The notes under the pieces: model-generated
The model's database searches: none
What the model saw: only the letters and a program-made list of their open reading frames with translations
What the model was told of the DNA's origin: nothing
Shown here: positions 43,239 through 46,745 of the stretch, piece by piece
Layout of the letters: each line of letters begins with the position of its first letter
Position numbering within the stretch: the first letter of the stretch is position 1
Program-made: the position numbers and the translations under genes
NCBI GenBank assembly: GCA_001822835.1
Contig: MHSS01000013.1
Coordinates: 10,321 to 74,320, forward strand
DNA length: 64,000 nt
Source of the DNA: Candidatus Terrybacteria bacterium RIFCSPHIGHO2_01_FULL_48_17
Lineage (GTDB): Bacteria > Patescibacteriota > Minisyncoccia > Terrybacterales > 2-01-FULL-58-14
Direction of reading: 5' to 3'

Positions 43239-44477
43239 ATGCGAAAGACCATAAAGTCCAAAAGGGGCCGCGCAAAGGCAAAACAAATACGAAAAACGCG
43301 TCTCGCAAAGAGGGGCAAAAAGAAAAGCGCGTCCATTAAAAAACCCAGGCGCAAACGTACAGTAAACGTCGGCATTACTCCCGAGGTGGTTTCTGAATTG
43401 ATTCGTCGCGGCAGGCAACGAGGATTCGTTACTTTCAACGAAATCGCAACACTGATCCCTCATATCGAGCAGGACATTGAGGGGCTTGAACGCTTATATC
43501 ACGATCTGGCACAGGAGAATCTTGAAATCGTTGAGCCAAAAGGATATTTGGAGGTGGATAAAGACAAGGAAGAGGAAGAAGAACCAAAAGACCTTAAACG
43601 TGTTTTGTCGCGCCGGCCAAAACACATCCCGACGCCGGGTGACTACGATTCGGTTCAGCTGTATTTGCGTGAAATAGGCCGCGAACGATTTTTAACGGCA
43701 GATGAGGAAAAGGATCTTTCCCGTCGCATTGAAAAAGGGGATCGCGAGGCATGGCGGAAATTGGTTGTGGCAAACCTACGGCTGGTTGTATCCATTGCAA
43801 AACGATATGTGGGGCGCTCACCCAATCTCACATTGCTTGATCTTGTGCAAGAAGGAAATTTGGGGCTTTTCCGCGCGGTCGATAAATTTGACTTTCGTCG
43901 CGGTTATAAATTTTCAACCTACGCTACTTGGTGGATCAGGCAAGCAATAACGAGGGCACTGGCTGATCAGGCACGTACCATTCGTATCCCGGTGCATATG
44001 GTAGAAACGATTTCCAAATATACACAGGTGAAACGACGGCTTTTACAAGACCTCGGCCGCGAACCCCTTGCAGAAGAGATTGCATCGGAACTTAATATAC
44101 AAGTTGATAAAGTGCATCATATTCAGCGAATCTCCCAAGATACGGTCTCGTTGGAAACGCCGGTTGGGGACGACGAGGAAGATTCGTTGTTGGGAGAATT
44201 TGTCGAAGACGAAAAACAATTAAATCCTCATGAAATAACAACGCGCGAGATCGTTCGAGATGAAATAAAAGCTATTCTCGGGGATTTGACACCGCGAGAA
44301 CAAAAGATTTTAAAAATGCGGTTTGGGCTTGATGAATACCAAGGGCAAACCCATACACTTGAGGAAGTGGGGGCAGAGTTTGGCGTAACGCGCGAGCGCA
44401 TCCGCCAAATTGAAGCGAAAGCGCTTGAAAAGATCAGGCAACATCACGCGGCGCGCAAGCTTGCAAGTACTTCGTAG
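43239..44477 (+). CDS. rpoD: RNA polymerase sigma factor RpoD (sigma-70) with basic N-terminal extension
   Basis: Region 2.4 [17 protein letters not shown]; region 4.2 [24 protein letters not shown]. In a dnaG-rpoD operon. Confidence 0.93.
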
Positions 44478-44499
44478 GTGAGCGTGCTACCATAAAATT

Positions 44500-44841
44500 A
44501 TGGGACGAGGTCCTGAAAGAATTCCCACACGATTTTTTAAAGAACAGGTGGCGGAGAGAATAGGCCGCGGCCCCGGTCGCCTTCCCTTGAATAGGGCTGA
44601 ACGAAAACGGATGCTTGGCACGTCGGTGAGTCCCAAACGTGCTTTAATTAGCGAGCGTCGATATGGTAGAGAAATGAGCCGGCGCGATTTTAAGAAATTT
44701 TTTGATCTCACACAACGTCCTTTGCCAGGAAGAGAAAAACCCCGTATTCGAGAACGAGTCGCGGATCGCCTCCAGCGTTATTTACGGCGCGGAAAATTTA
44801 AATCGCGCCCGCCGAAGGGATGGACGCCTTCAAAGATCTAG
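44500..44841 (+). CDS. Hypothetical highly basic protein (Arg/Lys-rich)
   Basis: 113-aa ORF. Overlaps the ORF-track model at 44702, so coding status is uncertain. Confidence 0.3.
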   Translation: MGRGPERIPTRFFKEQVAERIGRGPGRLPLNRAERKRMLGTSVSPKRALISERRYGREMSRRDFKKFFDLTQRPLPGREKPRIRERVADRLQRYLRRGKFKSRPPKGWTPSKI

Positions 44842-44866
44842 GATAGTATTGGTGTGTTCGCTATCT

Positions 44867-45178
44867 ATGCTTAATCTTTCACGCGATCAGGTCCGAAAAA
44901 TTCTGGAATACCTTGAAGCAGAAACCAATATTACACAGAAACAACTGTGGCGCGTACTTGAGAAGCACGGCGGTATTTTGCGCGATGGCGTTGATACAGC
45001 CGAGGAACGGAAGTTCGGACATCAAATACGTCCGCAAGAACGCGGTGACTTCTTTGACGAAATTGCAAAAGAAATGCATTTGACCCACGAGCAGCAACGA
45101 AAACTAAGGTATGCTATAAGTCCGCAGCATATTCGAGAGACGCTGCGCAGGATTGAAAAAGAAGCAAAGAATAACTAA
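44867..45178 (+). CDS. Hypothetical protein
   Basis: Start at ATG 44867 (MLNLSRDQVRKILEYLE). The upstream extension to 44702 would overlap the previous ORF. Confidence 0.4.
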   Translation: MLNLSRDQVRKILEYLEAETNITQKQLWRVLEKHGGILRDGVDTAEERKFGHQIRPQERGDFFDEIAKEMHLTHEQQRKLRYAISPQHIRETLRRIEKEAKNN

Positions 45179-45206
45179 TCTTGGCGCCATCTGAAACGGT
45201 TCATAT

Positions 45207-45524
45207 ATGGTAGATAAAAGAAGATATCGTGACCGTGCTGAATATAACAAACAGGCAGTTGCTAAACGAAGACGGAAATTGAAATTGCTTGCGATTGAAT
45301 ATCTCGGCGGAAAGTGTTTGGCATGTGGCTATACGCGATGCGCCGCTGCATTTGATATTCATCATCGCAATCCGCAAAAAAAAGAATTTGGTCTTTCGAC
45401 GAAAGGATTGACACGCAGTTGGGCACGTATTAAAAATGAGTTAGAGAAATGCATTTTGCTCTGCGCGAATTGTCATCGTGAGATACATGTAGGATTTCGT
45501 AATCTTCCCAAACATTTACATTAA
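45207..45524 (+). CDS. HNH endonuclease (YajD-like), ends 10 nt before the intron-containing tRNA-Asn
   Basis: CLACGY...FDIHHRNP...LLCANCHREIH: an HNH beta-beta-alpha metal finger flanked by two Cys pairs. Confidence 0.7.
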   Translation: MVDKRRYRDRAEYNKQAVAKRRRKLKLLAIEYLGGKCLACGYTRCAAAFDIHHRNPQKKEFGLSTKGLTRSWARIKNELEKCILLCANCHREIHVGFRNLPKHLH

Positions 45525-45534
45525 CAATTTGTAT

Positions 45535-45848
45535 TCCGGGGTAGCTCAATGGTAGAGCAGCTCCCTGTCTTAAGGCAGCTTTTGGGGGAAACCCCAAATG
45601 AAAAATTTCGGGATAACGGTGAACCCTTCGATCGGCATAGGACAAGCGTACCTAACGGTAAAGGCAACACCGTGGGAACCCCCGCCACCCCTTTTTATTT
45701 TATGGAAGGCGGGGGGCGCCGTAGAGACTAGATACCGAAACGCCTACCGTCGATTTTTTCGATCATGGCGATGATATAGTCCACCCTCGCAAGAAACTGC
45801 GAGATTCGTGTAAGGAGTTGGTTGTCGGTTCGAATCCGACCCCCGGAG
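45535..45848 (+). tRNA. tRNA-Asn (anticodon GUU) interrupted by a 242-nt group I intron in the anticodon loop
   Basis: 5' exon TCCGGGGTAGCTCAATGGTAGAGCAGCTCCCTGT; 3' exon TAAGGAGTTGGTTGTCGGTTCGAATCCGACCCCCGGAG. The acceptor TCCGGGG pairs with CCCCGGA. Spliced loop is CTGTTAA, U1 and discriminator G73 as in tRNA-Asn. Confidence 0.8.
45569..45810 (+). ncRNA. Group I self-splicing intron (no internal ORF)
   Basis: The 5' exon ends in U paired to G of the internal guide GCAG (45574-45577). The intron ends in G. Conserved-core elements are present: R-like CGTAGAGACTAGATACCG and S-like GATGATATAGTCCACC. Confidence 0.75.
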
Positions 45849-45851
45849 CAG
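45835..45851 (+). repeat. 17-bp direct repeat, copy 1 (3' end of tRNA-Asn): TCCGACCCCCGGAGCAG
   Basis: Identical 17-mer recurs at 46876-46892. Confidence 0.6.
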
Positions 45852-46130
45852 ATCTCGTGATTTAGGGTCAGAAACCATAAATCGTGAGAATGGAGACGTT
45901 TTGCGCGCCGCGGCAGAGACGCCGTAGCAAGCCATCGTTCGTGAGAGGACCTATTCCCTTTGGCGTAACCTTGATGCGCGGACCCTCCACCACGACGGCC
46001 TAGCGTATTGATTCTCTGGCGCCGTCATGTCCCTGTGTATAATCTTCGCGCTTGCCAGCTTCGCTTGCTCGTGCTACGAAGGAGATACAAACGCCTCACC
46101 CAGCCGAAAGGTCCGGTGAGGTCTTGTTAT

Positions 46131-46745
46131 ATGCAAACCGTCCTCTTTATCGACGGGAGAAATTTCCTCGGCAAGCTCAAGCAGGTATTTAAGGCAGCAC
46201 ACCGGCCGATGCCCTCATGGGCCACGTTTGACTTCCGCGGTCTGGTCGATCACGTCCTTAAAGGCGTTGCGGTAGACGAGCGGAGGATCTATTTCGCGCG
46301 CCTTGTCTTTCATCCCCAGACCGCCGATAAATCCCGCGCGCTTATCGAGGAGCGCAGACACCTAAAACGCCACCTTGAATCGACCGGATTTACATATATC
46401 GTGAGCGGGCATGTGCGCGCCAATGTCGTGAAGGACGCGTACGGGCATGAGGCCCTCGCGTTTAAGGAAAAGGGTGTCGATACCAAGATTGTCACGGATC
46501 TCGTGGTGGCTGCGTGCGATCGCAAGGTGAAAACCGCCATCATCGCAAGCTCCGATTCCGATTTGCAGCCCGCGGTCAAGGAGCTTAAGTTGCGCCGTAT
46601 AGAGCAGATCTACCTTGGCTTTGAGATCGAACCCAACAAAGGGCTCACCTACACGACCGACCGCACCATCCTCATCCGGAACGCAGAAGTACTACAATTT
46701 ATGGGCACGTCTACGTTGCCCTTCGAATCCAAAGAAGCTGCCTAG
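46131..46745 (+). CDS. NYN-domain (LabA/PIN-like) ribonuclease family protein
   Basis: LFIDGRNF (DG-N motif), VSGHV, ASSDSD acidic motif typical of NYN/LabA. Start at ATG 46131. Confidence 0.7.
   Translation: MQTVLFIDGRNFLGKLKQVFKAAHRPMPSWATFDFRGLVDHVLKGVAVDERRIYFARLVFHPQTADKSRALIEERRHLKRHLESTGFTYIVSGHVRANVVKDAYGHEALAFKEKGVDTKIVTDLVVAACDRKVKTAIIASSDSDLQPAVKELKLRRIEQIYLGFEIEPNKGLTYTTDRTILIRNAEVLQFMGTSTLPFESKEAA

Follow-up and report, generated by a model that had tools for sequence, protein, structure and literature searches.

Classical group I introns of bacterial transfer RNA (tRNA) genes are those of tRNA-Leu(UAA) in cyanobacteria and plastids, inserted between positions 34 and 35, of tRNA-fMet (33/34), of tRNA-Arg(CCU) and of the Azoarcus tRNA-Ile(CAU) (36/37), subgroup IC3. 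Here, a group I intron in a 64-kb stretch of DNA from Candidatus Terrybacteria (contig MHSS01000013.1) is analysed; the whole stretch is called the window in the following and all coordinates refer to it. Positions 45535-45848 of the window very probably comprise a tRNA-Asn(GUU) gene that is cut between tRNA positions 35 and 36 by a group I ribozyme of 242 nucleotides (nt) without an open reading frame (ORF). The host was placed in the Patescibacteria because the HNH protein encoded next to the split gene matches, with 100% identity, a protein that NCBI lists under 'Candidatus Terrybacteria bacterium RIFCSPHIGHO2_01_FULL'.

The tFind preprint of Williams (2020; 10.1101/2020.01.27.920355) raised the number of interrupted tRNA types from the classical four to 21, and it is cited in PMC13011429 for a type 'Asn.4Ug' that is sometimes mis-scored as 'Thr.2Ug'. 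Among the 22 intron-bearing tRNA genes that Nakagawa et al. (mSystems 2026; PMC13011429) described from 95 complete Patescibacteria genomes, 15 were tRNA-Asn(GUU) genes harbouring a group I intron at 35/36. According to the same paper, the Patescibacteria are enriched in insertions at 35/36 (19 of the 28 found across bacteria), 25 of the 28 introns at this position belong to subgroup IA, and HNH endonuclease genes are carried by four of the tRNA-Asn introns. ARAGORN and tFind often call the 35/36 introns of tRNA-Asn as tRNA-Thr(UGU) introns at 33/34 (PMC13011429). One Patescibacteria tRNA-Asn intron (GCA_016700035.1) self-spliced precisely at 35/36 in vitro, and the exchange of its terminal guanosine (omega G) for C blocked exon ligation (PMC13011429).

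The intron class is already published, with in vitro tests in 2025-2026, and the window locus adds one well-supported example with comparative evidence for the structure. The locus shares with the described class the phylum, the host tRNA, the anticodon, the insertion point and the boundaries (U at position -1 and omega G), as well as being missed by standard annotation, the miscall by ARAGORN and the link to HNH endonucleases; its length falls inside the range of 184-894 nt reported for the class (PMC13011429). A tRNA-Asn host with a 35/36 insertion had been regarded as unusual in the initial annotation of the window; this has to be corrected, as it is the commonest tRNA-intron setting in the Patescibacteria (15/22, see above). 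Unlike the introns of that survey, the window intron stems from a draft genome outside the 95 complete ones, and its HNH gene adjoins the tRNA gene instead of being borne by the intron; flanking endonucleases are unmentioned in PMC13011429.

Like the classical tRNA introns, the window intron is a small ribozyme without an ORF in the anticodon loop, its P1 helix is formed with anticodon-loop bases, and a standard tRNA would result from splicing. It differs from them in insertion point and host tRNA, and its 3′ core consists of GAUAUAGUCC followed by P9.0 and P9, unlike that of IC3 introns. A further core element, GUAGAGACUAGA, is common to the window intron and the Azoarcus intron. The Patescibacteria introns have been classified as IA, unlike the classical IC introns (PMC13011429).

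Homologous loci and alignments

Relatives of the locus were collected with the neighbouring HNH protein. Four metagenome contigs that carry the same split tRNA gene and three relatives were retrieved by look-ups of the exact protein. When metagenomes were scanned with an HNH protein alignment, 80 further loci were obtained, in nearly all of which a split tRNA was found by ARAGORN in intron mode. Two alignments were used: alignment A2, generated with MAFFT, contains 71 non-identical sequences (the window and 70 homologous metagenome introns) and extends from the internal guide to the 3′ end of the tRNA, and alignment A3 contains 12 compact-type sequences (the window and 11 others). Helices P3 to P8 were tested within the 12 compact sequences only, because MAFFT misaligned the 3′ strand of P3 and P8 between compact and hairpin-carrying introns. 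Counts out of 71 and out of 12 refer to A2 and A3, respectively.

Exons and spliced product

The acceptor stem of the gene is formed across the intron by TCCGGGG (45535-45541) and CCCCGGA (45841-45847), which are perfectly complementary, and the latter strand directly follows a canonical T arm, GTCGG-TTCGAAT-CCGAC (45824-45840). The D-arm sequence of exon 1 occurs a single time in the window. Joining of the two exons in silico (45535-45568 and 45811-45848) resulted in a product of 72 nt with the anticodon loop CTGTTAA, the pair U1-A72 and the discriminator base G73. ARAGORN recognised this product as tRNA-Asn(gtt), reported as 73 bases, with every stem paired. The distant acceptor pairing beside a T arm and the Asn identity of the joined exons had both been put forward in the initial annotation; the former was confirmed by the coordinates and the latter by the ARAGORN call.

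The combination of U1-A72 and G73 is the Asn-type body, as in Escherichia coli tRNA-Asn. Among the homologues, U1 was found in 69/71 and A72-G73 in 67/70 sequences. Compared with the uninterrupted tRNA-Asn(GUU) of the related locus L104, for which the Rfam tRNA model gives 72.5 bits, 65 of the 72 positions of the spliced product are identical (90.3%), and the differences are confined to stems. No difference in the split gene was seen among four independent metagenome contigs from different samples. Presumably, this copy is the working tRNA-Asn gene of the genome.

The bases that follow the gene (45849-45851) are CAG, so that the 3′-terminal CCA is not encoded, and many of the aligned homologues do encode it. 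CCA addition would be needed because the tRNA-Asn gene of the window encodes no CCA.

Structure of the intron

The coordinates of the exons, the structural elements of the intron and the neighbouring endonuclease gene are compiled in Table 1.

Table 1. Window positions of the split tRNA-Asn gene, the elements of its group I intron and the adjacent HNH gene, with sequence details and support.
Feature	Position	Strand	Description and support
HNH endonuclease gene, 105 amino acids (aa)	45207-45524	+	intact; phrog_2255 match; ends 10 nt before exon 1
tRNA-Asn exon 1, tRNA positions 1-35	45535-45568	+	acceptor 5′ strand, D arm, anticodon-stem 5′ strand, C32 U33 G34 U35; TCCGGGGTAGCTCAATGGTAGAGCAGCTCCCTGT
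P1 hairpin	45565-45578	+	exon C32-U35 and intron C+1 (45565-45569) pair with guide GGCAG (45574-45578); loop UUAA
Group I intron, 242 nt	45569-45810	+	no ORF of its own; RF00028 match, helix covariation
P2 hairpin	45582-45597	+	UUGGGG-GAAA-CCCCAA; all 6 pairs changed on both sides, 97% of cells paired (71 sequences)
P3 5′ strand	45606-45611	+	UUUCGG, partner 45735-45740; 4/6 pairs covary, 100% paired (12 compact introns)
P4, P5 and variable P5 extension	45617-45672	+	P4, 45617-21 with 45668-72, 100% paired and near invariant; P5, 45625-28 with 45661-64, 3 covarying pairs (12 compact introns); compact alignment, minimum free energy (MFE) fold agrees
P6 and P6a	45674-45720	+	45674-76 with 45717 and 45719-20; 45679-83 with 45711-15; 89.6% paired, 3 covarying pairs; bulged base 45718 in P6 varies, flanking pairs retained
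P7 5′ strand	45724-45730	+	G, bulged A, GACUA; partner 45777-45782; pseudoknot with P3
P3 3′ strand	45735-45740	+	CCGAAA; compact alignment
P8 hairpin	45741-45770	+	closing pairs CGCC ... GGCG; 3/4 pairs covary, 100% paired (12 compact introns)
P7 3′ strand	45777-45782	+	UAGUCC, inside the conserved element GAUAUAGUCC; 71-sequence alignment
P9.0 around P9 hairpin	45783-45809	+	P9.0, A45783-U45809 and C45784-G45808, both pairs covary, 96.5% paired; P9, 45786-91 with 45798-803, all six pairs covary, 83-88% paired (71 sequences)
Terminal guanosine (omega G), 3′ splice site	45810	+	G in 71/71, TAA next in 71/71
tRNA-Asn exon 2, tRNA positions 36-73	45811-45848	+	U36 A37 A38, anticodon-stem 3′ strand, five-base variable loop, T arm, acceptor 3′ strand, G73; TAAGGAGTTGGTTGTCGGTTCGAATCCGACCCCCGGAG

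The intron is preceded by U (45568) and ends in G (45810), and within it the guide GCAG (45575-45578), AGAGACTAGA (45723-45732) and GATATAGTCC (45773-45782) follow in this order. The group I hallmarks named in the initial annotation, i.e. the exon-terminal U opposite the G of GCAG, the terminal G and the order of the core elements, are thus present, and not only the omega G but also GCAG and the end of exon 1, CTGT, are found in 71/71 sequences. The 5′ splice site is marked by the wobble pair U45568-G45575 in P1. The pair beside it, formed by the first intron base and the base before GCAG, is of Watson-Crick type in 60/71 sequences (GC 39, AU 16, CG 5).

A scan with the Rfam group I intron model RF00028, which had been suggested as a check of the locus, gave a significant match at 45555-45803 over the full model (1-253 of 253). 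Its E-value was 8.6e-11 in a local search of 501 bases and 1.1e-8 in a search of the entire window on both strands, where it was the sole group I match.

Folding of 45535-45848 without constraints closed the acceptor stem across the intron and recovered the D and T stems as well as P2, P3, P4, P5, P6, P8 and P9 in the MFE structure, with a z-score of -3.3 relative to shuffled sequences. The P3/P7 pseudoknot is supported by the alignments: P7 crosses P3, P3 covaries, and P7 is paired and invariant. P7 forms six standard pairs in essentially all 71 sequences, with one cell departing, and the evidence for this helix is conservation instead of covariation because the helix is effectively invariant.

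Conservation of the ribozyme fold

Across alignment A2, 95.3% of the cells were paired compared with 74% in shuffled alignments; the observed covariation was reached by none of 500 shuffles, and no slid register came near it. Within A3, 94.7% of the cells were paired and 24 of the 47 pairs had changed on both sides. The covarying helices are P2, P9.0 and P9 in A2 and P3, P5, P6a and P8 in A3. Judged from these alignments, the ribozyme fold is clearly under selection, because eleven other compact introns preserve the same helices by compensatory changes.

The homologues differ in the region after P7. A hairpin, AGUA and a second hairpin, resembling P7.1/P7.2, are present in 47/71 sequences. They are missing from the window and 19 others, and in the window P7 is separated from the 3′ strand of P3 only by GAUA. 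P7.1/P7.2 hairpins between P7 and the 3′ strand of P3 are a hallmark of subgroup IA, by which feature alone the window intron was compared with this subgroup. At least three structural forms were observed among the homologues (A2 columns 358-450, e.g. L050:1066-1105), namely introns with hairpins after P7, compact introns and a few with a large insert between P3 and P4 (L047, L079).

Splice register and alternative explanations

The splice register is ambiguous because TGT occurs at both junctions. The same ribozyme could be placed two bases upstream, and the gene would then be a tRNA-Thr(UGU) gene interrupted at 33/34 by an intron at 45567-45808, which likewise has a U before the 5′ splice site and ends in a G (45808). 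In intron mode, ARAGORN reports precisely this tRNA-Thr(UGU) gene for the unspliced window DNA and for its metagenome copies. Nevertheless, a tRNA-Thr gene is extremely improbable here. Only 52/71 sequences have a G at 45808, the anticodon would drift among the homologues (UGU 62, CGU 8, AGU 1), and U33 would oppose an A instead of the wobble G. The body of the tRNA carries U1-A72 and G73 and shares 90% of its positions with an uninterrupted tRNA-Asn. Furthermore, the terminal G is fixed at 45810, because the two bases after GTCC (45783-45784) covary with 45808-45809 as P9.0; the pairs observed in the 71 sequences are AU 59, GC 6 and GU 2 at one position and CG 49, UA 11, AU 8 and UG 2 at the other. 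The same miscall as tRNA-Thr is documented in homologues and was disproved there by sequencing of the product spliced in vitro (PMC13011429). On the comparative evidence, the insertion is at 35/36, as set by the covariation of P9.0, the invariant G|TAA junction and the constant anticodon GUU. The 242-nt intron between these positions that had been proposed in the initial annotation was borne out in this way, with a span of 45569-45810.

A number of observations weigh against an interrupted tRNA-Asn gene with a functional ribozyme. P1 comprises five pairs only, and the MFE fold favours a rival 8-bp pairing of the anticodon-stem strand with AGG-C-AGCU that brings U33 opposite an A. The RF00028 match, although significant over its full length, scores 46.5 bits and thereby stays 3.5 bits under the curated gathering score of 50 bits, so that curated pipelines would omit the locus. 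Homologous introns score between 42 and 92 bits on the same model. Moreover, the intron is devoid of the extra hairpins after P7 that the majority of the homologues have (47/71), and a P10 pairing of CUUA (45569-72) with UAAG of the 3′ exon, possible in the window, has no equivalent in other relatives without ORF and is not claimed.

Two of these observations, the score under the gathering score and the reduced form without hairpins after P7, would also agree with a decaying remnant, i.e. a tRNA pseudogene with an intron that does not splice, the working tRNA-Asn being encoded elsewhere. Such decay has a counterpart in the related contig L050, where a degenerate upstream copy of the split gene stands beside an intact one. 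For the window locus a remnant is highly improbable, however, since the tRNA stems are all paired without a mismatch, the intron retains each ribozyme position that is invariant in the family, the helices are held by compensatory changes in the eleven other compact introns, and the locus is the same in the four contigs from different samples. Additionally, intron-bearing and intron-less copies of one tRNA seldom coexist in a genome (PMC13011429).

The 8-bp P1 of the Rfam match and the MFE fold (AGCU-C-CCU with AGG-C-AGCU) was considered separately and rejected, as it puts A and not G opposite the splice-site U. Furthermore, the guide flank GCAGCUUCC is constant although the anticodon stems of the homologues differ, so that the pairing is not conserved there.

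Proposed course of splicing

For the interrupted tRNA-Asn gene, the steps of splicing can be proposed from the structure of the intron and from the behaviour of tested homologues. The exon bases C32-U35 and the intron base C+1 would pair with the guide GGCAG to form P1, in which the wobble U35-G45575 would define the 5′ splice site. The catalytic core would be built from P3-P8 and P4-P6, and P7 would provide the binding site for guanosine. From there, an external guanosine would attack after U35, and the terminal G45810, positioned by the two base pairs of P9.0, would subsequently take the place of the external guanosine. The 3′-OH of U35 would then attack after G45810, whereby U35 would be joined to U36 and the loop CUGUUAA restored. 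By analogy with the tested homologues, this copy probably splices in the cell.

Detection by standard tools

In its default setting without intron mode, ARAGORN reported only a tRNA-Leu and a tRNA-Ser in the window and missed the split tRNA-Asn, and an Rfam scan at gathering thresholds reported nothing at the split tRNA locus. Together with the tRNA-Thr(UGU) call in intron mode, this means that standard tRNA finders overlook or misname the gene. A genome in which it is missed or misnamed would seem to be without tRNA-Asn, which would lower completeness estimates.

An ORF of 60 aa (MVEQLPVLRQLL...), located at 45549-45731 on the + strand of the window and corresponding to L041:3343-3525, has been called as a gene in public metagenome records. 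The call is almost certainly spurious, because the ORF lies wholly within exon 1 and the intron, the split tRNA having gone unrecognised.

A collection of genome contigs was also scanned with the pattern TAGARCNNNNNNCTGTNTTAANGCAG, which presupposed a conserved short P1 loop. The 40 matches were all located in protein-coding sequence and none in a tRNA gene. A conserved motif common to many of these matches belongs putatively to the RNA polymerase alpha C-terminal domain.

Neighbouring HNH endonuclease gene

The ORF upstream of exon 1 matches phrog_2255 ('HNH endonuclease') with an E-value of 3.4e-27, and its Pfam PF01844 score of 18.8 bits is below the cut-off of 21.4. The residues H52-H53, N88, H90 and H94 and the cysteines 37, 40, 86 and 89 are invariant or near invariant among 29 homologues. 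A total of 470 homologues with 55-67% identity were found, and the named ones are from Berkelbacteria, Nomurabacteria and Paceibacterota.

The position of the HNH ORF was counted in 84 non-redundant related loci with readable context. It lies inside the tRNA-Asn intron, in the loop of P1, in 73 of them. Outside the intron, it is found upstream on the same strand in six (the window genome, L050, L069, L096, L108, L122), in divergent orientation in four (L080, L089, L091, L093) and downstream of an uninterrupted tRNA-Asn gene in one (L104); in none is it unlinked to a tRNA-Asn gene. All 84 HNH genes are located within a tRNA-Asn gene or at most about 400 nt from one. Given this strict linkage, the HNH enzyme may cut alleles that lack the intron, at the insertion site or close to it. 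The distance between the HNH gene and the tRNA-Asn gene is approximately 45-160 nt in the four divergent loci and in L069, L096, L108 and L122.

The L104 locus (L104:1805-2294) contains an HNH homologue with its own promoter-like sequence, 121 nt downstream of the uninterrupted tRNA-Asn(GUU) gene and a terminator-like hairpin. The surroundings of this HNH homologue are devoid of a group I core. If the enzyme targets the intron-less anticodon region, the genome with L104 would harbour its own target.

In the intron-borne HNH ORFs, the last codons (..ACG CAG CTT CCx AAx GAA.., T-Q-L-P-K-E) also serve as guide GCAG and P2 hairpin. The HNH ORF of the window ends with CGT AAT CTT CCC AAA CAT TTA CAT TAA, where CTT CCC AAA is kept, and the GCAG guide and the P2 3′ strand are lost. 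This tail looks like the vestige of a former position inside the intron, with a degraded guide and the 5′ strand of P2. Because the 3′ end of the window HNH gene seems to hold such a vestige of the guide and P2, an exit from the intron would be favoured over a stage before entry. A sequence search of the window found no second exon 1 upstream of the HNH gene.

The closest HNH homologue (67% identity) is encoded in L050, where two split tRNA-Asn genes are arranged in tandem (L050:139-1222). The upstream copy consists of exon 1, an HNH-containing intron (ribozyme score 61 bits) and an exon 2 that has degenerated, with two mismatches in the acceptor stem and one in the T stem. The downstream copy, 130 nt further on, is an intact tRNA-Asn gene with an intron (80 bits) that has no ORF and is of a different structural type. 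From its organisation, L050 looks like a plausible intermediate on the way to the window arrangement. A neighbour-joining tree of the HNH proteins (about 100 residues, no support values), used as a hint only, showed the free-standing cases scattered among the intron-borne copies. Together with the 11/84 loci in which the gene is located outside the intron, this suggests repeated exits or entries of the HNH gene in the Patescibacteria.

On these gene arrangements, it is possible, if rather doubtful, that the window HNH protein is an active endonuclease that left the intron and works beside it. The route would be a tandem duplication of a split tRNA-Asn gene followed by decay of the upstream copy, with L050 appearing as the half-way stage. 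What would remain is a free-standing endonuclease gene 10 nt upstream of the tRNA gene and an intron without ORF that shields the target site. The HNH gene and the intron could then spread jointly by trans ('collaborative') homing.

Collaborative or trans homing has been described in phages, with a free-standing endonuclease beside a group I intron without ORF, as for the T4-type mobE/I-TevIII and the cyanophage S-PM2 F-CphI/psbA (PMC3984707; PMC2790892; PMC6083498). The window arrangement resembles these systems in that a free-standing HNH gene adjoins a group I intron that has no ORF. Unlike the phage cases, the setting is a cellular tRNA gene and not a phage protein gene, and close homologues of the endonuclease are encoded within the same intron, at an identical site. 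If the proposal holds, the locus would be the counterpart, in a cellular tRNA gene, to a mechanism hitherto described in phages. The related loci form a natural series from intron-borne to free-standing, which is relevant to how homing endonucleases come together with group I introns and part from them. That the HNH gene of the window stands free is a by-product of the analysis and may merit a follow-up of its own.

Flanking sequences

A promoter and terminator scan of 44400-46200 gave nothing above chance. An exact-sequence look-up of the NYN-domain protein encoded downstream found no record, because the collection uses a different start codon.

A contig of the same population, L043, is identical to the window through the HNH gene and the split tRNA gene and becomes fully divergent three bases past the discriminator base (window 45851 onward versus L043:3645 onward). 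Beyond the 3′ end of the tRNA, L043 has a SHOCT-domain gene on the opposite strand, which replaces the NYN-domain gene of the window. The divergence marks a strain-level rearrangement or an island boundary at the 3′ end of the tRNA gene.

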